From Eledone cirrhosa (Eukaryota), in NCBI GenBank assembly GCA_964016885.1, contig OZ024750.1:27342001-27406000 (forward strand): DNA of 64,000 nucleotides, read 5' to 3'. The notes beneath the pieces are model-generated. The model was not told where the DNA came from. It made no database searches and saw only the letters and a list, made by a program, of their open reading frames with translations. The position numbers were made by a program, and so were the translations under genes. Below are positions 17,576-43,730 of this stretch, piece after piece (position 1 is the first letter of the stretch; the number at the start of each line of letters is the position of its first letter).

Positions 17576-17762
17576 CTTCTCTCTAAAATAATGACACACA
17601 CATATATACGCACACATATATACACACACACGCATATATATATATATAGGTTGTAATAAAATGAAAACGAAATTTCATTTCTCACTCTTAGTACGGCACT
17701 TACTTAAATGTAAGTATGTATGTATACGTACATACATATATGTATACAGACGTACAGTAGCA

Positions 17763-17838
<76 letters not shown>

Positions 17839-18003
17839 TACATATATACATACAGGTACACATACATATATGTACGCATCAGTTTAGCGGACGCTTATTA
17901 TAGCGCCCGCTTTGTTCGTTTGTAAACAAACTGAACAGCCTGAATTTATGCCGCACGGTGTTAAGGCAACCATGTCACCCTTTTGTTCAACACTGACACA
18001 GGA

Positions 18004-18046
18004 ACGATGTACTAGTTTCAAGCTTGTTAGCTATCATCAGCACCGT
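18004..18046 (-). ncRNA. Type I hammerhead ribozyme (family R, unit 1)
   Basis: Minus strand reads acggtg CTGATGA t-agct-aaca-agct-t GAAA cta GTA catcgt. 6-bp stem I, palindromic stem III ACTAGT, GUA triplet. Confidence 0.9.
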
Positions 18047-18282
18047 ATACCCATCTGCCAGATAGTTGAACGTTCGAAAGTATATACTTTCCTTGTGAAA
18101 ATTAACGGCTGAGCAGCCTAATTTGCATATCGAGTGAGTTAAATCGGTCAGGCGGACCGAAAACGATGAGTTGTAATAAAATGAAAACGAAATTTCATTT
18201 CTCACTCTTAGTATGGCACTTACATAAATGTAAGTATGTATGTATACGTACATACATATATGTATACAGACGTATAGTAGCA

Positions 18283-18342
<60 letters not shown>

Positions 18343-18497
18343 CATACAGGTACACATACATATATGTACGCATCAGTTTAGCGGACGCTTATTATAGCGC
18401 CCGCTTTGTTCGTTTGTAAACAAACTGAACAGCCTGAATTTATGCCGCACGGTGTTAAGGCAACCATGTCACCCTTTTGTTCAACACTGACACAGGA

Positions 18498-18540
18498 ACG
18501 ATGTACTAGTTTCAAGCTTGTTAGCTATCATCAGTACCGT
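18498..18540 (-). ncRNA. Hammerhead ribozyme (family R, unit 2)
   Basis: As unit 1 but acggta, giving an A-C mismatch at the first pair of stem I. Confidence 0.75.
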
Positions 18541-18791
18541 ATACCCATCTGCCAGATAGTTGAACGTTCGAAAGTATATACTTTCCTTGTGAAAATTAAC
18601 GGCTGAGCAGCCTAATTTGCATATCGAGTGAGTTAAATCGGTCAGGCGGACCGAAAACGATGAGTTGTAATAAAATGAAAACGAAATTTCATTTCTCACT
18701 CTTAGTATGGCACTTACATAAATGTAAGTATGTATGTATACGTACATACATATATGTATACAGACGTATAGTAGCATGCATATTTATATAT

Positions 18792-18874
<83 letters not shown>

Positions 18875-19031
18875 TACATACAGGTACACATACATATATG
18901 TACGCATCAGTTTAGCGGACGCTTATTATAGCGCCCGCTTTGTTCGTTTGTAAACAAACTGAACAGCCTGAATTTATGCCGCACGGTGTTAAGGCAACCA
19001 TGTCACCCTTTTGTTCAACACTGACACAGGA

Positions 19032-19074
19032 ACGATGTACTAGTTTCAAGCTTGTTAGCTATCATCAGTACCGT
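19032..19074 (-). ncRNA. Hammerhead ribozyme (family R, unit 3)
   Basis: Same sequence as unit 2. Confidence 0.75.
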
Positions 19075-19310
19075 ATACCCATCTGCCAGATAGTTGAACG
19101 TTCGAAAGTATATACTTTCCTTGTGAAAATTAACGGCTGAGCAGCCTAATTTGCATATCGAGTGAGTTAAATCGGTCAGGCGGACCGAAAACGATGAGTT
19201 GTAATAAAATGAAAACGAAATTTCATTTCTCACTCTTAGTATGGCACTTACATAAATGTAAGTATGTATGTATACGTACATACATATATGTATACAGACG
19301 TATAGTAGCA

Positions 19311-19386
<76 letters not shown>

Positions 19387-19719
19387 TACATACAGGTACA
19401 CATACATATATGTACGCATCAGTTTAGCGGACGCTTATTATAGCGCCCGCTTTGTTCGTTTGTAAACAAACTGAACAGCCTGAATTTATGCCGCACGGTG
19501 TTAAGGCAACCACGTCACCTGATGCGTACATATATGTGTGTGTACCTGTATGTATATATGTATATAGATATATATATATATATATGCATGCTACTGTACG
19601 TCTGTATACATATATGTATGTACGTATACATACATACTTACATTTAAGTAAACAAACAAACAGCCCGAATTACGCCGTACAGTTTTAGGCAACCACGTCA
19701 CCTTTTTGCTCAACACTGA

Positions 19720-19762
19720 ACGATATACTAGTTTCAAGATTATTAGCTATCGTCAGCATCGT
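19720..19762 (-). ncRNA. Hammerhead ribozyme (family R, diverged unit)
   Basis: acgatg CTGACGA tagctaataatctt GAAA cta GTA tatcgt. Stem I substitutions keep pairing, and the core change is at the free N7 position. Confidence 0.8.
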
Positions 19763-20623
19763 ATACCTTCCTGCCAGATGGTTGAACGTCTGAAAGTATA
19801 TACTTTCCTTATGCATATTAACGTCTGAGCAGCCTAATTTGCATATCTAGTGAGTTCAGTCGGCCGGGCACACCGAAAACGATAAATGGAATAGAATGAA
19901 ACGAAATTTCATTTCTCACTCTTAGTACGGCACTTACTTAAATGTAAGTATGTATGTATACGTACATACATATATGTATACAGACGTACAGTAGTATGTA
20001 TATATATACATACATGCACACTTATATATATGCACTATATATATGTGTTTGTATCTATATTATATCTGTATTTTTAACCGTTGGTCAGTCAATGTTAACA
20101 TTGAGGACCGAATAAATTAAATTAACTGATATAAAAGATACAGAAGCGAAAACCAACCAAACAGTGAGTGTGTTCTGTTATTAATTCTGGCAATATTATT
20201 ACACAAATATGACCCTCCCCATGTATATATACATATATATATATATATGTATATAAATGAGTCTATTTATAGACATCCTAAATATTCAGTACGTAAACGT
20301 GCATATGTACACGAACGACATGTTTATAGCTGTTCTATATACACGTACACAAACAGGTTTGAATAGAATGGAAAATAAAATGTCTTTAAGGAAAAAGAAA
20401 AAAAAAAATATGTATCAATTCCATGCCTGAAAATGATAAAACACGCACGCCTGGCAAGATGTGAATTCTTGACATCAGATATTAGGTTTAATCATAGACT
20501 GAACCTTGGCTACTCGTTCCTTGTGTTATATGTTTAGATCTTGCCATTCTCTCTGTTGATTCCAGTTACAAATCTTATTATAAAGAACGGATAGTAAGTA
20601 ATATTACAGGCGATTATTATTAC

Positions 20624-30556: not shown

Positions 30557-33500
30557 CTACAGGATGGTATACAGAGAAGGCCCATTTACACGAGCCATTC
30601 TCGCCACTATCACCCACCTTTCATAAAACTGCCTGTGGCCAAGCACCTCTCTCTCCATTCTTATCCTTCTTCCGAAGTGATATCGGAAGAAGTAGACCAG
30701 ACTATGGCCAGAGAGGAAGTTGCCTGACCTCAGACCTTTCAATCGTGTCCACCAAACAACCTCTTTCAACATGGCTATTACGCACAGAAAAACCGCCTTT
30801 GCTTCCTTTGTGAAGAGGGGAGGCGGTTTGATTGTCATCACGGACTCGGCGGTCAATTTAATCGGCGCCACCCGCGACAGCAGTTGTTCGGCGTAGCCCC
30901 ACAGATCAGCCACGCCCGGACATTGCACCAATGCGTGCGCCACGGTTTCTTCGTGACGCACGCATCTAGGGCAAATCTTTTTTGAGGGATCCCTGCCCGG
31001 GCGCCCGTGTCTGTAGAGCCTCTCTCGAACGGGTAGAGCCCCTCGGTAGCACTGCCAGGCCAGTGACTTCTGGAAGTTGTCCATTGGTCCTGGGCCGAAA
31101 GTCCTACCGAACAGGCTGGCCAGTTCGTCTTCTTCCATGTCCAGCGACTCTCCAAGGGTGTCATCGCCCCTGCTAGCCACCAGCCCTCTATAGAATGATG
31201 AGGTGGATTCTCCACCGATGGCCCGGCCCGCTTGCCAGAGAGCCCTGAGCGCCTGAGCACACTCAGTGTGCCAGTCTCCCAGTTTTCCGGATCTTTGCTT
31301 GACCCAGGACTGTAGCTCGGTGAGTGAGACGAGTCTCGGAAAGGCTCGTTTCACGAACGGAGCCCACACCGGTTGACCAGTGAGGAATACCTGTAGGTGC
31401 CGTAGCCTTAATGCGTGCCTACGCATCATCAACCACGGCATCCCCAGCCCTCCTTTCGAAGGTTGTTGGCAGCAGATGGATCTTCTCACCATAGGAGGAC
31501 GCTTCTTCCAAAGAAATTGGAAGAGCATGCGTTCCATGGTGGTGAGTGTTTCCTTAGGGCAAGGCACGACAGTCAGGCGGTAGTAAGTGACGGACGCTAT
31601 GTAAATGTTCGCCACCTCCGCCCGGCCTTTTAGGGACAGCTTACACTTGGCCCATTTCTGGGTTAGTGCAAACACCTTGTTCGTAACCTCGTTCCAGTTC
31701 TTTTCCACCTGGAGGTCCGGTCCAAACCAGACCCCAAGCAACTTTACCGGGCCCTCCGTCCAGTGTCCGACGACACTGTCAGGAGGCATCGGTTTGCCTC
31801 TCCACGTTCCGAGTTGCAGCCCGATGGATTTTTCCCGGTTCAGTTTCGCTCCTGACAACCTTTCGTACTCCTCCAGTAAGGTACCGATCGCCTCGATCTC
31901 CGAGTCGGTTGATACCATTACTGTTACGTCATCGGCGTAGGCCGACACCGCTTTGCTCAATCCTGGTTCCAGGGGGATACCCTGCAACAACTCCAACTTC
32001 CTCAGTAAAGGCTCGAGAGTCAATACGTACAGAAGGGAGGAGAGAGGGCACCCCTGTCGAATGGATCGTGTGATTTCGAACGGCTTCGAAAGGTAGCCGT
32101 TCACCTTGATCCCAGAACAGATGTGGTTGCTATGTAGGGCAGTGATCCAGCCTCTGAAAACAGGACCGAACCCAGCCGCCGCTAGCACCGCATTCAGGTA
32201 ACCATGGTCGACCCTATCGAAGGCCTTAGACTGATCCAAGTTGATCAGGGCCCCACCGAAGCCGGGTTTGTTGCCAACCCTCTCTATGATGTATCGCATG
32301 AGGTGGAGGTTATCGTGAATGGACCTGGATGGGATAGCACATGTCTGCGCATCTCCCACCAGGCCACCCACGACAAGCGCCAACCTCTTTGCTAACACCT
32401 TGGCCAAAATCTTTAACTCTGTGTTTAGCAGGGTTATGGGCCGAAAATTATTTATACTATCCCCCTTGTTCTCGTCCTTCCTCACCAGCGTGACTACGCC
32501 CTTGGCTACAGAACAAGGAATTCTCCCGTTCTGCTGCCAATTGCAGTAGACCGCTTCGAGGAGTTCGGAGAAGAAGACCGGCATTGCTAAATAAAGTTCG
32601 TAAGGTATACCATCGAGACCTGGAGATTTGCGTCTGCTGCATTGGCTCAGCGCATCTCCGATCTCATCAGCCGAGATTGGTCCCTCGCAGGACTCTGCCT
32701 CTTTGTTCGAGAGACGCGGCAGGCCGTCGAGGTATGGACCGAAATCCACGCCCCGGCCCGGACCCTCGCCTCCCCCGAACAATCGGGCAAAGTGCTTTTG
32801 AAAGGCCTCGCACATCTGCTTAGGCTCCCGGATCACTCGTCCATCTTCGTCTTGCAACGACCGGATGGTGGATCGATTTCCACTTTTAGCTTCTGTCACG
32901 CGGGCCCATCCAACGGCTTTGGCCCCCTCATTACCTAGAGCACGTATTTTACTTCGAATGACGCAGCCTTCATGCTTTGCATCGAAAAACTGGTTCAAGG
33001 CCGTCCTCGATGCCAGCACTCTGGCCACATCTTCGCTCTTGATTGCCTCTTCTAATTTACCTGTTAATTCTTTCTCGTTTCTATTCCTATTGGCAGCTAA
33101 CATCTTGCTATAACTTATTGATTCTGTTCTAATCTCTCTTTTGAGAGATGCCCACCATCGGTTGTTGACGATTGCACCCGTCAACCTCTCCTTAACTAAT
33201 CTGCTAATCCGGTTTCTGTAAGTCTCTTTTGCCGGTAAAGACAAATTAAGTTTCCAGTAACCGGGACCCTGTCTATGTGTTTTCTCGAGATTGACCACGC
33301 AGGTCACTAATTTGTGATCCGTGTAGCCAACCGTGCGCATTTCTGGACAGCTTAATATGTCCCTATCCTTACTTCTAACTAAGAATCTATCTAAGTACGA
33401 TCTAGATTGACCACTGTGGTTTCTCCAAGTCCAGGTAGGCACAGTTGGAAAATCTAGTCGATATCTATCGACCAAGTTAAAACGGTCGAGTAACCCCTTG

Positions 33501-33994
33501 AGGCTGTTACACCCCCCTCTATTAGGACATGCTCCTGCATAGTCCCAACGTGCATCTAGGATGTCATTCCAATCCCCCGCTAGAAGCAGGGAACGCGACG
33601 TTCCCAGAAAAGTCTCCAAACGCTGGAAGAAGTCGGGCCGTTCAGCTCCGAAAGGGGAGTAGACGGCGACCAGTCTCAAGGCCGCACTTTCACTACTGCC
33701 AACGTCTAGCACCAACAAACGACCCTCCGGGTCCGAGTGCACAACCTGTACGGCAAGACCCAGGTGTTTTTGCAGCAGCACGACAACCCCACCCCCACCT
33801 CCAGGTTGACAGAGAGATGCATGCACCTCAAAGTCATCGAAGGTGGGGGCCAGCTGCCGCATGACGCTGATTCGAGTCTCACAGATAACCATTACATTTA
33901 TACTACATGACCTGAGGTCATTTAGAAGCTTTGCTTGCTTCCAAGTTGAGCCCAGGCCACGTGCATTCAAACATCCTACTCTTAACACATCCAT
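30557..33994 (-). CDS. ORF2: AP-like endonuclease + reverse transcriptase + C-terminal Cys/His motif, 1145 aa
   Basis: APE motifs LNARGL, ICETR, LAGDWN, SYLDRF, TDHK; Tx1/L1 linker GPGYWKLN; RT motifs KSPGLDG, RPITLLN, LDQSKAFDRV, IRQGCPLS, AYADDV; GGLG motif; CPRC..ETVAHALVQC. Confidence 0.97.
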   Translation of the reverse strand: MDVLRVGCLNARGLGSTWKQAKLLNDLRSCSINVMVICETRISVMRQLAPTFDDFEVHASLCQPGGGGGVVVLLQKHLGLAVQVVHSDPEGRLLVLDVGSSESAALRLVAVYSPFGAERPDFFQRLETFLGTSRSLLLAGDWNDILDARWDYAGACPNRGGCNSLKGLLDRFNLVDRYRLDFPTVPTWTWRNHSGQSRSYLDRFLVRSKDRDILSCPEMRTVGYTDHKLVTCVVNLEKTHRQGPGYWKLNLSLPAKETYRNRISRLVKERLTGAIVNNRWWASLKREIRTESISYSKMLAANRNRNEKELTGKLEEAIKSEDVARVLASRTALNQFFDAKHEGCVIRSKIRALGNEGAKAVGWARVTEAKSGNRSTIRSLQDEDGRVIREPKQMCEAFQKHFARLFGGGEGPGRGVDFGPYLDGLPRLSNKEAESCEGPISADEIGDALSQCSRRKSPGLDGIPYELYLAMPVFFSELLEAVYCNWQQNGRIPCSVAKGVVTLVRKDENKGDSINNFRPITLLNTELKILAKVLAKRLALVVGGLVGDAQTCAIPSRSIHDNLHLMRYIIERVGNKPGFGGALINLDQSKAFDRVDHGYLNAVLAAAGFGPVFRGWITALHSNHICSGIKVNGYLSKPFEITRSIRQGCPLSSLLYVLTLEPLLRKLELLQGIPLEPGLSKAVSAYADDVTVMVSTDSEIEAIGTLLEEYERLSGAKLNREKSIGLQLGTWRGKPMPPDSVVGHWTEGPVKLLGVWFGPDLQVEKNWNEVTNKVFALTQKWAKCKLSLKGRAEVANIYIASVTYYRLTVVPCPKETLTTMERMLFQFLWKKRPPMVRRSICCQQPSKGGLGMPWLMMRRHALRLRHLQVFLTGQPVWAPFVKRAFPRLVSLTELQSWVKQRSGKLGDWHTECAQALRALWQAGRAIGGESTSSFYRGLVASRGDDTLGESLDMEEDELASLFGRTFGPGPMDNFQKSLAWQCYRGALPVRERLYRHGRPGRDPSKKICPRCVRHEETVAHALVQCPGVADLWGYAEQLLSRVAPIKLTAESVMTIKPPPLFTKEAKAVFLCVIAMLKEVVWWTRLKGLRSGNFLSGHSLVYFFRYHFGRRIRMEREVLGHRQFYERWVIVARMARVNGPSLYTIL

Positions 33995-34027
33995 GTGGGC
34001 GGCAGAGCCAAAGGAGAGTGTAGAGAC

Positions 34028-35908
34028 CTACCTTTCCGCTTCCCGGGGTTCGGGTTGCACGACTTCCATGGGGTCGGGGGTGTTGGGTGAAGGGGTGTCT
34101 TGTGGTGGTGTGGGGTCGTCGGTGTGTGGTGGGGTTGGGGTGTTTGGAGTTGTGTTGGGGAGGGGAAGGGGAGGGGGAAAGCTTTTTAGTAGGACGCGGT
34201 TTATGGGTTTGACAGAGGGTGGTCCTACGTCCTCCTTAAAATCCTTTTTTAGTTTTTGGTAGAGGTTCATTGGGATTTTTATTAGTTTTAAATGTGGGTG
34301 GTTTTCTGATGAAACAAAGTTTACACCTTCGGTTTGTACCGAAGGATTATTGTATATGAGTTCATTTAATTTATTATTGTTTCTGTTGATGTAAGTATAG
34401 TGTAATGTCTTTTTTTCCGATGGTGTGAGTGTTTCGAAGAGGGGAGGGGCAGGTTTGGTTTTGTTTGTTGCTGGAGGGGTGTTTTCTGTTTTGTTAGATT
34501 GTGTTGCGATTTGGGTGGGGGTTGTTTGTCCTTGTGTGTTTTGCACATGTTTTCTTTTTTTCCTTTTAATCTGTCTGAAGGACTCCGTTTCTTCCTCCGA
34601 ATTCGTTGGGTTATCTTCAGTGTTGGAGGGAAGAGGTATGTTTGCTGGTAATGTTTCCGTGTTGGTTTTCTTTGTGGGGGAGATGGATGTCACTATGTTA
34701 GACTGTGTTGTGTGTTGTGTCTGCGGTGGTTGTGTTGTTTTATTGAGTGAGAGGTTGGGTGGGCCTGTATTTTGTTTTGGGGTAATGTGTTGTGACTGTT
34801 TGTGTTGTGGTGGTGTTGTGGTGTTACTGAGGGACGGGTTGGGTGGGACTGAGTTTTGTTGTTTGTTTATCTGTTGTGGTGGTGGTGGTGGAGCTGGTGT
34901 TGGTAGCAGGGTTTTCTTTTTGTTGAGTTGGGGACAAGCGGCCTTCAGGTGCCCTCTGCCTGCACAGATATGGCAGGACGGCCTTCTCCCCTCCACGCTA
35001 ATGTTTATATACCCGTGGTCCTCTAATAGGATTCTGTCGGGTATTTGGGCGATGCGTTCAGGCTTCATTTGTACTACCAGCTCTATACCTGTTCCACTGA
35101 ACGCATTGCCTGTGGTTTTCCCAATGGAAATCACGTTGTCATTCACTGGATCGATGAAGCCAGCTATGAGCCAGCAGTAGTCCACATCTGGCATCATTGC
35201 ATCCAGCCATATGCGTTGAGTTTTTTTCCCCATATAAGATGGATAAAAGGTGAAATTTTTCGAACGAATCGGTGACAAAGCACATTTTTTTGCCGCCGAT
35301 TCGTTCTTCATGATAATTGCTAGGCTTCCATACAGTCTGTCTTTTCTTATGAAAGTTGTTTCATTCAGTACTTCTGCGAGTACTGTTTTGATATCTGCTT
35401 GAGAAGGCTGTTCAGGTTTTTTTGTACTGTTGTTGATGGTCCGAAACTTGACCGTTCGGCTTTCAATGTCTTTCGTGAATTCTTGAGGCATTTTTACCAA
35501 TAAAATACCATTCTCACCTTCACTTATGTATTGTTTTGCGTCCGTGATCCTTCGTACCACATCTGAAATGTTTTCCGCTATATAAGTCAAAGATTTCTTT
35601 GTTTTCTGTGCAAAAGAAATCTTGTCGTCTGCTTTGTTTTCTGATATTATGTTATTTTCAACTGTTATTTTTTTGTTTGTTGTGTCTTTGTTTGTGTTAT
35701 TAGTATTGTCATGCAATTTTTCAAATTTTTTTTTTTCGTTGTTTTCGTCATTTAATTTTTTTTCCTCCGCAGATTCGTCCGTTTTTATTTTCATTTTTCC
35801 TTCCTTCTCTATGACGTTAGTTGGGAAGGAAGGGAGGACTAAAGCGTGCGAGCTTACAACTCTTACCGCTGTCCCCCCACCACTATTTTCGTTCGCTGCG
35901 TTTAACAT
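34028..35908 (-). CDS. ORF1: gag-like nucleic-acid-binding protein with CCHC zinc knuckle, 626 aa
   Basis: CHICAGRGHLKAAC fits CX2CX4HX4C, followed by a Pro/Gln/Thr-rich region. Lies directly upstream of ORF2 on the same strand. Confidence 0.9.
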   Translation of the reverse strand: MLNAANENSGGGTAVRVVSSHALVLPSFPTNVIEKEGKMKIKTDESAEEKKLNDENNEKKKFEKLHDNTNNTNKDTTNKKITVENNIISENKADDKISFAQKTKKSLTYIAENISDVVRRITDAKQYISEGENGILLVKMPQEFTKDIESRTVKFRTINNSTKKPEQPSQADIKTVLAEVLNETTFIRKDRLYGSLAIIMKNESAAKKCALSPIRSKNFTFYPSYMGKKTQRIWLDAMMPDVDYCWLIAGFIDPVNDNVISIGKTTGNAFSGTGIELVVQMKPERIAQIPDRILLEDHGYINISVEGRRPSCHICAGRGHLKAACPQLNKKKTLLPTPAPPPPPQQINKQQNSVPPNPSLSNTTTPPQHKQSQHITPKQNTGPPNLSLNKTTQPPQTQHTTQSNIVTSISPTKKTNTETLPANIPLPSNTEDNPTNSEEETESFRQIKRKKRKHVQNTQGQTTPTQIATQSNKTENTPPATNKTKPAPPLFETLTPSEKKTLHYTYINRNNNKLNELIYNNPSVQTEGVNFVSSENHPHLKLIKIPMNLYQKLKKDFKEDVGPPSVKPINRVLLKSFPPPLPLPNTTPNTPTPPHTDDPTPPQDTPSPNTPDPMEVVQPEPREAER

Positions 35909-36132
35909 TTCTGTTAGACGATTGAAATTTTTTACACAAAATTTTTTAAAACAGGTTTTTCACCTCTAGGAGGGGTAAAGATGAGCTGACCCACCGCCTG
36001 ACAGTTCAGACGGAGGGTCAAGCTACACAATTGTATCAAAATTAAGTTTGAACTCACAAAATTTCCTCAATAAATTTGAACAAAACTTCTGTGCGAAGTG
36101 AATGACATCCACACTGTAGAACAGACGACAGC

Positions 36133-39633: not shown

Positions 39634-40591
39634 GCTTTCCAGATGATTTCCTTCGAATGAAACAATTCTAGTCTTGTAGAAGTCATTTCTATTTTAAATC
39701 TTGTATATACGCTACTATGTATTGAGTACCTTACTTATTGCGGTTATCTCACAGTAAGTATATATACATATACACTATACGACAGACATAGAGAAGAGAT
39801 GAATATCATATATCTCCAATCTCTATTCAAGTACACTCTTCAGAATATTCGCTATTTCTACTATAAACCACTTAATTTTAATATTTTCATATAGTTTTGT
39901 ATTCCATACATTCAATTCCATCATTGTGTGTTTACATGTTTTGCAACCTGATCTACCAGAGACTGGTTTATTTCAACGGACGTCTCATATTAGTAACATT
40001 TTATGTTAAATAATTGTTTCTACTTTTGGCACAAGGCCAGCAATTATCCCAGTGCATTACTGGTACTTTATCTTATCGACCCCGTAAGGATGAAAGGCAA
40101 AGTTAACCTTGGTGGGATTTGAACTCAGACCATAAAGGGGCATAACTCTGTGCTGCAAAGCATGGCGTCCGACCTTCTACCGATACTGCCAAATAGTGAC
40201 GACAAAGGCAAAGTAAGTATGCCTGAGCTGGACAGTGGAGTCAGTTCCTGTTGGCCTACAAAATGGCTCAAATAGTTTGTGTTTACCAACTCCGCTGGCT
40301 ATTGGTGCCGAGGGTCGGTATGCCTGAGCTGGACAGTGTGGTGGGCTCATGTTAGCCTACAAAATGGCGCAAATAGGTTGTGTTTAGCATCCCTGCCGGC
40401 CAAATTCCCTCCCATGCCTCCCTGTCGCGACACTTGCTCCATCTAATTGGGTTGGGTGTGAAAACGAGAGCTGGGCGTTACAACCGATGCAATGCTTAGA
40501 TTGCATCTACTTGTGGATGGGCATTGCTTTTGAAACCAACTGCCCTAAGAAGCACCACTGAAATGAACTTACACCGTGAATTCCTTGGATA

Positions 40592-41260
40592 GAGCCGACT
40601 CAACTCAGCCCAGGTGAACTTCGCCACAAGTACAAGAAAAGTAAATAAGTTAAGGAGGATTCAAGAAATTAAGTAGAAATCTTCGATGGAGCCGGCTCAA
40701 CCCAGCCCAGGTGAACTTCGCCACAAGTACAAGAAAAGTAAATAAGTTAAGGAGGATTCAATAAATTAAGTAGAAATCTTCGATGGAGCCGGCTCAACCC
40801 AGCCCAGGTGAACTTCGCCACAAGTACAAGAAAAGTAAATAAGTTAAGGAGCATTCAAGAAATTAAGTAGAAATCTTCGATGGAGCCGGCTCAACCCAGC
40901 CCAGGTGAACTACGCCACAAGTACAAGAAAAGTAAATAAGTTAAGGAGGATTCAAGAAATTAAGTAGAAATCTTCGATGGAGCCGGCTCAACCCAGCCCA
41001 GGTGAACTTCGCCACAAGTACAAGAAAAGTAAATAAGTTAAGGAGGATTCAAGAAATTAAGTAGAAATCTTCGATGGAGCCGGCTCAACCCAGCCCAGGT
41101 GAACTTCGCCACAAGTACAAGAAAAGTAAATAAGTTAAGGAGGATTCAAGAAATTAAGTAGAAATCTTCGATGGAGCCGGCTCAACCCAGCCCAGGTGAA
41201 CTTCGCCACAAGTACAAGAAAAGTAAATAAGTTAAGGAGGATTCAAGAAATTAAGTCGAA
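40592..41260. repeat. 97-bp tandem repeat, 7 near-identical copies
   Basis: gagcc at 40592, 40689, 40786, 40883, 40980, 41077 and 41174. Confidence 0.95.
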
Positions 41261-41444
41261 ATACATATTTAGCTGACAGAAGAATTTTATTAAATGGTAA
41301 ATTAGTCTTTTATTATTTTATTTCTAATTAGTTATTATGTTCAAAAGAGAAGGAACATTGTATTAATTCCGTCTTCATCAGCTGGCTGTCATCACCATTG
41401 TTCTAGAGTGGCTTTCAATGAGAGACACATACATCATACATACA

Positions 41445-41527
<83 letters not shown>

Positions 41528-41559
41528 TTATTAAATAACTATATGTATTACTATTAAAT

Positions 41560-41679
<120 letters not shown>

Positions 41680-41682
41680 ATG

Positions 41683-41741
<59 letters not shown>

Positions 41742-41748
41742 ATGTATG

Positions 41749-41796
<48 letters not shown>

Positions 41797-41916
41797 GATA
41801 GACATAGAATATTCGAAAATATTCTGTATGTTTATAATAAACATTTTGAAGACCTAATCGCTATAGAATAGAATACGTCACGTATTACAATTAGATTCTC
41901 GATAAAAGCAAGGGAA

Positions 41917-41959
41917 GTAACCTACGCGTTTCATTCTTATTAGAAATCTTCAGGATTAC
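41917..41959 (-). ncRNA. Type I hammerhead ribozyme (family F, inverted unit)
   Basis: Exact reverse complement of the unit 1 ribozyme. Confidence 0.88.
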
Positions 41960-42249
41960 ATATCCAGTGCTTTTATCGAGAATGACACAGCTAGAGACTT
42001 ATAGAATACTTAGCTGTGTACAGGAACTGGTTTGAAAGAGCGGTTGCCAGTCCGGCAGAAATTAGAAATTGGATTAAATGCTCTGAAATAGCGATGTCTA
42101 TCTTCACATATATATCGCTATTTCAGAGCATTTAATCCAATTTCTAATTTCTGCCGGACCGGCAACCGCTCTTTCAAACCAGTTCCTGTACACAGCTAAG
42201 TATTCTATAAGTCTCTAGCTGTGTCATTCTCGATAAAAGCACTGGATAT

Positions 42250-42292
42250 GTAATCCTGAAGATTTCTAATAAGAATGAAACGCGTAGGTTAC
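42250..42292 (+). ncRNA. Type I hammerhead ribozyme (family F, unit 1)
   Basis: gtaatc CTGAAGA t-ttct-aata-agaa-t GAAA cgc GTA ggttac. Stem I gtaatc/ggttac is extended by attctcgataaaagca/tgcttttatcgagaat; palindromic stem III ACGCGT; predicted cut after 42286. Confidence 0.9.
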
Positions 42293-42559
42293 TTCCCTTG
42301 CTTTTATCGAGAATCTAATTGTAATACGTGACGTATTCTATTCTATAGCGATTAGGTCTTCAAAATGTTTATTATAAACATACAGAATATTTTCGAATAT
42401 TCTATGTCTATCTTCACATATATATCGCTATTTCAGAGCATTTAATCCAATTTTTAATTTCTGCCGGACCGGCAACCGCTCTTTCAAACCAGTTCCTGTA
42501 CACAGCTAAGTATTCTATAAGTCTCTAGCTGTGTCATTCTCGATAAAAGCACTGGATAT

Positions 42560-42602
42560 GTAATCCTGAAGATTTCTAATAAGAATGAAACGCGTAGGTT
42601 AC
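42560..42602 (+). ncRNA. Type I hammerhead ribozyme (family F, unit 2)
   Basis: Identical to unit 1; predicted cut after 42596, 310 nt downstream of the first cut. Confidence 0.9.
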
Positions 42603-42869
42603 TTCCCTTGCTTTTATCGAGAATCTAATTGTAATACGTGACGTATTCTATTCTATAGCGATTAGGTCTTCAAAATGTTTATTATAAACATACAGAATAT
42701 TTTCGAATATTCTATGTCTATCTTCACATATATATCGCTATTTCAGAGCATTTAATCCAATTTCTAATTTCTGCCGGACCGGCAACCGCTCTTTCAAACC
42801 AGTTCCTGTACACAGCTAAGTATTCTATAAGTCTCTAGCTGTGTCATTCTCGATAAAAGCACTGGATAT

Positions 42870-42912
42870 GTAATCCTGAAGATTTCTAATAAGAATGAAA
42901 CGCGTGGGTTAC
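42870..42912 (+). ncRNA. Hammerhead (family F, unit 3) with GUG cleavage triplet, predicted inactive
   Basis: cgcgtgggtt replaces cgcgtaggtt (A>G at 42906), which violates the NUH rule. Confidence 0.8.
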
Positions 42913-43730
42913 TTCCCTTGCTTTTATCGAGAATCTAATTGTAATACGTGACGTATTCTATTCTATAGCGATTAGGTCTTCAAAATGTTTATTATAAACA
43001 TACAGAATATTTTCGAATATTCTATGTCTATCTTCACATATATATCGCTATTTCAGAGCATTTAATCCAATATATATATATATATATATACATGCATATA
43101 TATGCATGCATACATACACACATGCATATATACATGCATATATATATATATATATATACATACATGCATACATACATATATATATACATGCGTACATACA
43201 TACAGACTATTGTTTAATAACTATAACGTAATATATAGACATATGTCTATACATAATTACATTTATGCATATAGAAATACATACTTTATACATACTGATG
43301 TTTAATATCTGTAACGTAATATTTATACACAAAAATTTAGACATATATACTTACACATTGTTGTTTAATACCACTAACGTAATATATACACACGATGGCT
43401 GCAAACTCTGTTAAAAGGATTGCAATCGCTTGTCAGATTACAGCGTGTTGTGCACTTATAGGCTACCACCAGCCACACACGCCTGTAACATATCCTCAAC
43501 AAGCAATGCCAGTGCCTTGAAGGATTTTTAACTGGGGAAAGGCTTTTCACTCGACCAATCCCACTCTTTGAGGATCGAAATCACTGCTCGCAAAGCAGAA
43601 CTGGTCAACATCATCGGATGCTCTGAAGCCGTAGGTTTTTTTTTCCAGAGTTTACCCTCTCCTTGAAAGGTGTCGGGACAACAACTGGGGGCCTTTCACT
43701 CCCAGATGCCCCCCCCCCAAAAAAAAACAC

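Follow-up and report, generated by a model that had tools for sequence, protein, structure and literature searches.

A young family of 310-bp hammerhead repeats whose insertion ends in (TA)n microsatellites point to Penelope-like mobilisation

The window analysed here is a stretch of 64,000 nucleotides (G000:C10:27342001-27406000) of a genome of 2.996 Gb in 1796 contigs. It contains a tandem array with a period of 310 bp and 99% matches, in which 3.15 units (3.2 copies in the repeat scan) stand head to head with an inverted copy of 303 bp, i.e., 0.98 unit, between (TA)n-type tracts on the left and right. The three tandem units differ from one another solely at 42454 and 42906. The unit is 34% GC and its longest internal open reading frame is at most 39 aa. 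Nine frames of at least 30 aa overlap the region; seven lie mostly within the TA tracts and the other two are of 38-39 aa. The first-pass annotation, which had described three tandem and one inverted non-coding unit inside (TA)n, is thus borne out in its layout. The open-reading-frame scan found no RT/GIY-YIG frame in the array region, and the array is therefore not in itself an autonomous Penelope-like element. Positions within the unit are given below as phases, phase 1 being the first base after the GUA triplet (42287 in the window). The features of the locus are as follows.

41448..41792, no strand: left (TA)n-type microsatellite, the presumed target site
41793..42095, reverse strand: inverted arm, 0.98 unit; its 3' end is the 'short' fixed end, 130 nt past the cut site, running into (TA)n
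41917..41959, reverse strand: hammerhead of the inverted arm, GUA, with position 17 at 41923
42094..42095, no strand: head-to-head junction of the arms, with a 2-base overlap
42094..43071, forward strand: tandem arm, 3.15 units; its 3' end is the 'long' fixed end, 165 nt past the cut site, running into (TA)n
42226..42314, forward strand: hammerhead 1 together with the 16-bp helix (42226-42241 / 42299-42314) that extends its stem I
42250..42292, forward strand: hammerhead 1, with a 6-bp stem I, core at 42256, stem III ACGCGU and a predicted cut after 42286 (GUA)
42287..42596, forward strand: predicted 310-nt monomer between two GUA sites, 34% GC, circular fold z -5.7
42560..42602, forward strand: hammerhead 2, with a predicted cut after 42596 (GUA)
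42870..42912, forward strand: hammerhead 3, with a GUG cut triplet (G at 42906), likely impaired
42966..43024, forward strand: two hairpins directly upstream of the short end, a candidate signal for the helper protein
43037..43071, forward strand: 35-bp 'tail' separating the two fixed ends, terminal on the tandem arm only
43072..43204, no strand: right (TA)n-type microsatellite, the presumed target site

Each unit includes one type I hammerhead, with CUGAAGA cores at 42256, 42566 and 42876 on the forward strand and at 41953 on the reverse strand. The motif consists of stem I (GUAAUC/GGUUAC), the core, GAAA and stem III (ACGCGU), followed by position 17. Stem II has a U.U mismatch at the base and, above it, four pairs. 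This mismatch was missing from the first-pass description, which did identify the palindromic stem III and the stem I extension, a 16-bp helix without mismatch. A GUA triplet had been ascribed to every unit; that is the case in three of the four hammerheads, in which position 17 is A (42286, 42596 and 41923), and in the third tandem copy the triplet is GUG. With G17, minimal hammerheads are strongly impaired, though tertiary-stabilised ones retain activity (PMC3884650); hammerhead 3 is therefore likely impaired. The predicted cuts after 42286 and 42596 are spaced to free exactly 310 nt, as had been proposed. Transcription within the tandem arm would permit both cuts and yield one such monomer. 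If transcripts instead entered the array from the left flank, the inverted arm would base-pair with a tandem unit along about 300 bp, and this could block cutting.

The 89-nt region comprising hammerhead 1 and its extension folds with a z-score of -8.3, and none of 200 shuffles was equally good. To call the hammerhead foldable was nevertheless an overstatement. In a fold model that treats the monomer without tertiary contacts or dimers, and within that limit, CCU and AGG pair with each other across the core in the minimum-energy fold (-33.4 kcal/mol, against -19.6 kcal/mol for the hammerhead fold), so that the core is buried, and the two inner pairs of stem I have a pairing probability of 0.05-0.06. 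The stem III palindromes of two hammerheads are predicted to form a 6-bp duplex (-7.5 kcal/mol), and a dimer route through stem III has been described for animal hammerheads (PMC4209133). As a circle, the 310-nt monomer is predicted to be highly self-paired (-70.7 kcal/mol; z of -5.7 against 100 shuffles). The search with hammerhead models that the first-pass annotation had suggested gave no Rfam match at gathering score in the window; the best signal, and the only one, was Hammerhead_HH9 at 17.1 bits (E 0.59), the cut-off being 52 bits. Because this score is below the cut-off, the hammerhead call stands on core motifs and covariation and not on Rfam.

Several other elements lie in the window. 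A second hammerhead repeat family occupies 17650-20031 on the reverse strand. Its units, each about 500 bp long, contain a (TA)n tract; its cores, at 18040, 18534, 19068 and 19756, have a U.U at the base of stem II, a palindromic stem III (ACUAGU) and GUA. A short head-to-head pair of hammerhead-like cores, (TA)n-ended, is found at 2665 (reverse strand) and 2713 (forward strand), and its family also flanks other loci, e.g., L193. A 97-bp tandem repeat (seven copies, 98% matches, 40584-41262) adjoins the left TA tract. Finally, a LINE-like element at 30560-35959 on the reverse strand has two long frames, namely one of 643 aa without a Pfam match and one of 1156 aa with endonuclease, RT and zinc-binding matches.

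A genome-wide count gave 943 exact copies of the 43-nt hammerhead and 110 of the junction between the long end of the tandem arm and (TA)n; the reversed-pattern controls each gave 0. A one-unit query returned 236 matches in 39 scored candidates of 398. We mapped 118 loci, in a first set of the 38 best full-unit matches and a second set that includes 73 loci chosen solely by their long-end junction. The second set was used for the counts of ends and variants because the first is biased against shared variants (0 of 36 fixed). L181-L182, which are duplicates, were excluded from both sets, and L156-L158, duplicates of one insertion, were dropped from the substitution and variant counts. The two sets have 134 substitutions in 57,939 bases and 145 in 50,516, i.e., 0.23-0.29% per base, and the family is therefore young. 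Its insertions with base-exact ends, at least 110 in number, are dispersed over many chromosomes. Thus the young, dispersed family with retrozyme layout (non-coding tandem units, each with one type I hammerhead) that the first-pass annotation had proposed is upheld, and the single-locus tandem duplication that it had named as a refutation is not what the genome contains.

One satellite-like array (L318-L328) extends from G000:C14:25199427 to beyond 25300000. It holds at least 228 units, rearranged and with higher-order repeats, and position 17 is A in every one of its 228 stem III motifs. This array accounts for the strand excess among the 943 hammerheads, and demonstrates that some arrays expand at the DNA level. 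We considered it as the master donor of the family and rejected it: its marker is present in 82 array units, versus only 2 of 366 units at 108 dispersed loci.

In the 412-433 units that cover the core, C3, A6, A9, A13, A14, A15.1 and U16.1 are invariant; the remaining core positions vary at one to four loci, and N7 varies in 47 units. Because the family is so young, this invariance is weak evidence by itself. For the wider lineage the counts refer to copies, not independent events, and derive from a search pattern that fixed part of the core; on this basis, 325 of 418 motifs have C3/G8, 80 have U3/A8 and 13 have neither. The U3-A8 pair is an established covariation of the hammerhead core (PMC4209133). 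Across the lineage, substitutions in stems I and II are paired, and stem II takes the forms UUCU/AGAA, GCAU/AUGC, GCUU/AAGC or GUAC/GUAC. Stem III is ACGCGU (318 copies), ACAAGGCCUUGU (51), ACAAGUCUUGU (9), ACAGAGCUCUGU (5) or ACAGAGAUCUGU (5), all five self-complementary. Sister family B, of 319 bp and with 2064 first-look candidates, is identical to the 310-bp unit in 216 of 326 columns. It has the same two-ended layout, and retains the hairpin pair of 42966..43024 with altered sequence. Because sister families swap C3-G8 for U3-A8 while stem III stays self-complementary, we conclude from this sequence comparison that catalysis has likely been selected in the lineage. A close genomic subfamily, along with contigs from four runs, differs from the window at N7, in loop 2 and at stem positions where pairing is preserved; of the seven differences listed, six fall in the hammerhead and none at the invariant core. 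Since this close subfamily lacks the AGG behind the predicted misfold, the folding model suggests that the window subfamily may be the weaker cutter. Natural variants in the genome include the type at G000:C9:25.46 Mb, with stem I GUAGUC/GAUUAC.

Among the 73 loci selected on the long end, 58 are two-armed, with an inverted, 5'-truncated copy head to head beside tandem copies, and in 57 of these 58 the partner arm ends at the short end. The 38 best-match loci include 27 that are two-armed, 23 of them with both ends. The short and long ends lie about 130 and 165 nt after the cut site, i.e., with an offset of 35 nt, and neither coincides with the cut site itself. The short end is mostly at phase 130, but a TA run in the unit lets it be read up to phase 139. 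Nearly every end is followed by (TA)n, namely 100 of 101 at the long position and 87 of 91 at the short one, or 187 of 192 in total, some of the loci having been selected on that junction. The 5' ends are spread all round the unit, and among 115 arms they do not pile up at the cut site; a cluster 11-14 nt after it (9 ends versus 1.6 expected) was chosen post hoc and, in an 11-nt scan, was equalled in 21 of 150 simulations. At the arm junctions, 35 of 58 loci have an overlap, mostly of 1-5 bases. Copying of one arm from the other by fold-back was rejected, because the longer arm can be of either kind (the long-end arm in 30 of 57 loci) and because the arms of L044 and L151 are not mirror images.

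Penelope-like elements are described as carrying a truncated copy in inverse orientation, a tail of 30-40 bp on one side and a bias towards (TA)n (PMC8557442). The Penelope protein of the anole cuts both strands of the DNA and extends each of them, and in vitro it starts at two internal RNA sites that bound the tail; hammerhead cleavage is unnecessary to it in vitro, where it uses mainly unprocessed RNA (PMC11167929). The 35 bases from phase 130 to 165 match this tail, and the two arms match the extension of both strands. Mobilisation by Penelope-like machinery, which the first-pass annotation had put forward, is therefore supported by better evidence than it had then, namely the two fixed 3' ends, which it had overlooked together with the significance of the inverted copy.

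A few insertions are of mixed composition. At L031:4400-5150 an arm of the window type is joined straight to arms of sister family B within one insertion. At L052, L060, L061, L137 and L142, single arms stand head to head with other TA-ending elements, some of which have hammerhead-like cores or Penelope-like frames; these could be two-template events or target deletions. They were not used for naming the helper, because L142 has two long ends.

The arms also carry information on the template. The cut site is crossed by 68 of 115 arms, 34 arms are longer than one unit, and only one of the 115 starts at phase 1. The usual template was therefore not a cut linear monomer; because arms cross the cut site freely, it was either a circle or an uncut multimer. 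At L125, a change found at no other of the 118 loci is present in four of four units, in both arms. At L184, three changes private among the 118 loci are in seven of seven units of both arms, a single private change is in four of four units at L113, and L187 has one change in 18 of 18. These all-unit variants favour a monomer circle at some loci. At L151, by comparison, three private changes are in one unit per arm and absent from the neighbouring units, and L185, L044 and L067 likewise have variants common to both arms in some units only, which rules out a single monomer circle at these loci. Variants recur every 2-5 units at L047, L052 and L115. Such mixed patterns favour multimers, or later expansion as DNA, at other loci. 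In the less biased set, the 27 multi-unit loci comprise six with an all-unit variant, four with a partial one and 17 with neither. No excess of changes, i.e., no scar, was found at the would-be ligation junction.

Axolotl retrozyme RNA occurs as monomers, circles, dimers and trimers (PMC7229834), and by analogy the best reading is that a mixture of circles and uncut multimers would have served as template. Rolling-circle reverse transcription, from which the tandem copies had been supposed to arise, may have acted at loci of the L125 and L184 type but would not be the sole source, since some loci need mixed multimers or DNA expansion. Three runs whose kind is unrecorded, from three other organisms, contain a single 340-nt contig that joins the end of the unit to its start; because tandem DNA and a circle would both yield such a contig, it is not counted as evidence of RNA. 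Among six runs listed, no RNA run carrying the repeat was named, which speaks neither for nor against expression. A skip from the cut site to phase 46 was seen at L047:6958-7065 and in one low-depth contig of run X1.

Penelope machinery is likely present in the genome, in which young Penelope-like families have open frames of at least 770 aa. A 1238-aa frame at G000:C3:287.23 Mb is one candidate. We sampled three young protein families with long open frames, which, partly by their motifs, we take to be Penelope-like. One of them has a GIY-YIG match at the Pfam cut-off. Its frames are of 1167-1261 codons, upstream sequence being part of some, and the Atlas clusters closest to it contain RT, HTH_animal and GIY-YIG families. 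This family has two ends of its own in (TA)n, with 12 short and 12 long cases among 34, and a tail of about 60 nt, as against 35 in the 310-bp repeat; it is the sole family with measured ends. The unit and the three tested families have no sequence in common beyond neighbouring insertions. A search for a shared 3' end, by two exclusion patterns and the three protein families, did not find one, and among the loci read the exclusion patterns returned only further non-coding relatives (5 of 10; at least 30 of 85). The three protein families number 20,906-75,771 first-look candidates, and the genome holds further families. A cluster of tandem copies of about 3 kb of a Penelope-like family, with open frames of 778 codons, was seen at G000:C4:204.13-204.57 Mb.

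The family joins the known animal retrozymes; what is new is an unusually clear, base-exact Penelope footprint. Metazoan non-LTR retrozymes have units of 220-245 nt in coral, 350-390 nt in mussel and 330 and 350 nt in axolotl, and as described by Cervera and de la Pena (2020, PMC7229834) they are alike in that a non-coding tandem unit of 150-450 bp, with GC below 50%, carries a single type I hammerhead, and in their dispersed arrays and strongly self-paired monomer. The full hammerhead core and stems occur in consecutive copies 1 and 2, as non-LTR retrozymes require. A stem III of one pair and a palindromic tetraloop resembles HHR_Amex1, and the U.U at the base of helix II resembles HHR_Amex2 (PMC7229834). 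By sequence the family thus has the unit layout, hammerheads, dispersal and self-paired monomer of non-LTR retrozymes, its self-cleavage, circular RNA and rolling-circle copying being predicted only. It also has the inverted truncated copy, paired fixed ends and (TA)n targets of a non-autonomous Penelope-like element, but a 3' end in common with a parent did not turn up among the three families compared. The 310-bp family differs from those retrozymes in its GUA triplet; (TA)n targeting, head-to-head arms and two fixed ends are not described for them in the main-text parts of that paper considered here. Plant LTR retrozymes, with a type III hammerhead in two LTRs, are unlike the present units in their topology, which here is type I in head-to-tail units.

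Endonuclease-bearing Penelope-like elements, in the account of Craig et al. (2021, PMC8557442), likewise have the inverted truncated copy, partial tandems, 30-40-bp tail and AT-rich or (TA)n targets, and in anole PAc (Frangieh et al. 2024, PMC11167929) the hammerhead is likewise upstream of the internal start sites. These elements are about 3 kb or more, however, whereas the 310-bp unit is without an RT/endonuclease frame (PMC8557442, PMC11167929). In a preprint that samples 31 vertebrates, three insects and one coral, Li, Clavereau and Pollet (2026, bioRxiv 10.64898/2026.07.22.740005) regard animal retrozymes as non-autonomous Penelope-like sequences, and report that one of nine frog retrozyme dimers was cleaved in vitro. 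Class and proposed helper are the same as here. The link to the helper differs: in the preprint it is co-occurrence and likeness to pseudo-LTRs, and in the 310-bp family it is the insertion footprint, with no parent pseudo-LTR found.

The explanation that we judge most probable is that the array is an insertion of a young non-coding hammerhead repeat, likely copied from RNA by the Penelope-like RT/endonuclease of another element, with hammerheads predicted to cut as dimers and a 310-nt circle likely as the template for some insertions. Tandem copies would first be transcribed. Neighbouring hammerheads would then pair through their self-complementary stem III and cut slowly, so that the RNA would be partly monomer circles and partly multimeric, as covariation and the axolotl data suggest. 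The helper protein would cut both (TA)n strands and prime at 130 and 165 nt past the cut site, one site per DNA end; here the ends are observed, and the chemistry is modelled on the anole protein in vitro. Each copy extends across the cut site for a variable length, as is observed, and the template would be continuous there. The two truncated copies, observed joined head to head and mostly with an overlap of a few bases, would complete the insertion. Some arrays would later expand as DNA, such as the satellite of at least 228 units, an observed array whose timing is presumed. Against this explanation stand the predicted monomer misfold, the analogy with an anole protein that is independent of hammerhead cleavage and uses mainly unprocessed RNA (PMC11167929), the analogy with frog dimers, of which one in nine was cleaved (bioRxiv 10.64898/2026.07.22.740005), and the comparison in which the unit has no sequence in common with the three Penelope-like families tested, the one with measured ends having a tail of about 60 nt. 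The partly shared variants at L151, L185, L044 and L067, the small number of multi-unit loci with an all-unit variant (six of 27) and the ligation junction, with no excess of changes, also weigh against it.

In a less probable account, Penelope-type mobilisation proceeded from uncut linear multimers only. Circles would then be absent or by-products, the window subfamily may cut poorly, and tandems would stem from tandem sources and later expansion as DNA, of the kind seen at C14:25.20-25.30 Mb. The preference of the anole protein for unprocessed RNA in vitro (PMC11167929), the predicted misfold of the window subfamily core and the mixed variant patterns common to both arms at L151 and L185 all favour it. 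It must contend, however, with the private all-unit changes at L125 and L184, which need repeated copying of one unit at some step, or alternatively fast conversion between inverted arms in a family only 0.3% diverged; with a C14 array that, from its marker, was not the main donor; and with a core that has covaried through the lineage.

It is improbable that the unit is the terminal repeat (pseudo-LTR) of a yet-unfound autonomous Penelope-like element, with the arrays as derivatives lacking its frame. The end anatomy is as described for autonomous elements (PMC8557442), and frog retrozymes match pseudo-LTRs in the preprint account (bioRxiv 10.64898/2026.07.22.740005). Nonetheless, at 118 loci no arm runs into a reading frame of the same direction (by open-reading-frame scan at 37 loci and the window, and by segment maps and single-arm neighbours at the rest), the exclusion patterns gave only the non-coding relatives noted above, and the units are directly contiguous at 310 bp. 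A further account would be a tandem duplication confined to the locus, or an ordinary satellite, with a fortuitous hammerhead-like motif and no RNA step. The Rfam score far under threshold and the satellite-like C14 array might speak for it, but it is refuted by the dispersal and fixed ends of the insertions, and faces their variable 5' truncation and the covariation of the core besides.

The explanation that we prefer, with Penelope-like copying and circles at some loci, bears on how animal retrozymes move. The case for their mobiliser has been built on co-occurrence and likeness in sequence (bioRxiv 10.64898/2026.07.22.740005), and the circle as their template is put forward as a hypothesis (PMC7229834). 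Here, a family is young enough to retain base-exact ends that match the behaviour of a Penelope protein in vitro. We suggest, tentatively and with somewhat less than even confidence, that these insertions are the genomic record of a ribozyme-made circular RNA that was reverse-transcribed repeatedly round by a Penelope protein that used two fixed internal sites to prime at either end of a single cut microsatellite. A literature search by title and abstract opening, across openly accessible articles, listed no cephalopod retrozyme; if our reading is true and the host is a cephalopod, this would be the first retrozyme family that we could trace for that group. A mobile repeat would, moreover, have seeded a satellite of at least 100 kb. 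With two start sites on the RNA named and natural ribozyme variants at hand, the choice between circle and multimer is directly testable. If true, this reading would answer the question of what mobilises animal retrozymes, with 310 nt as a minimal substrate and the conserved hairpin pair and tail as the signal for the protein.
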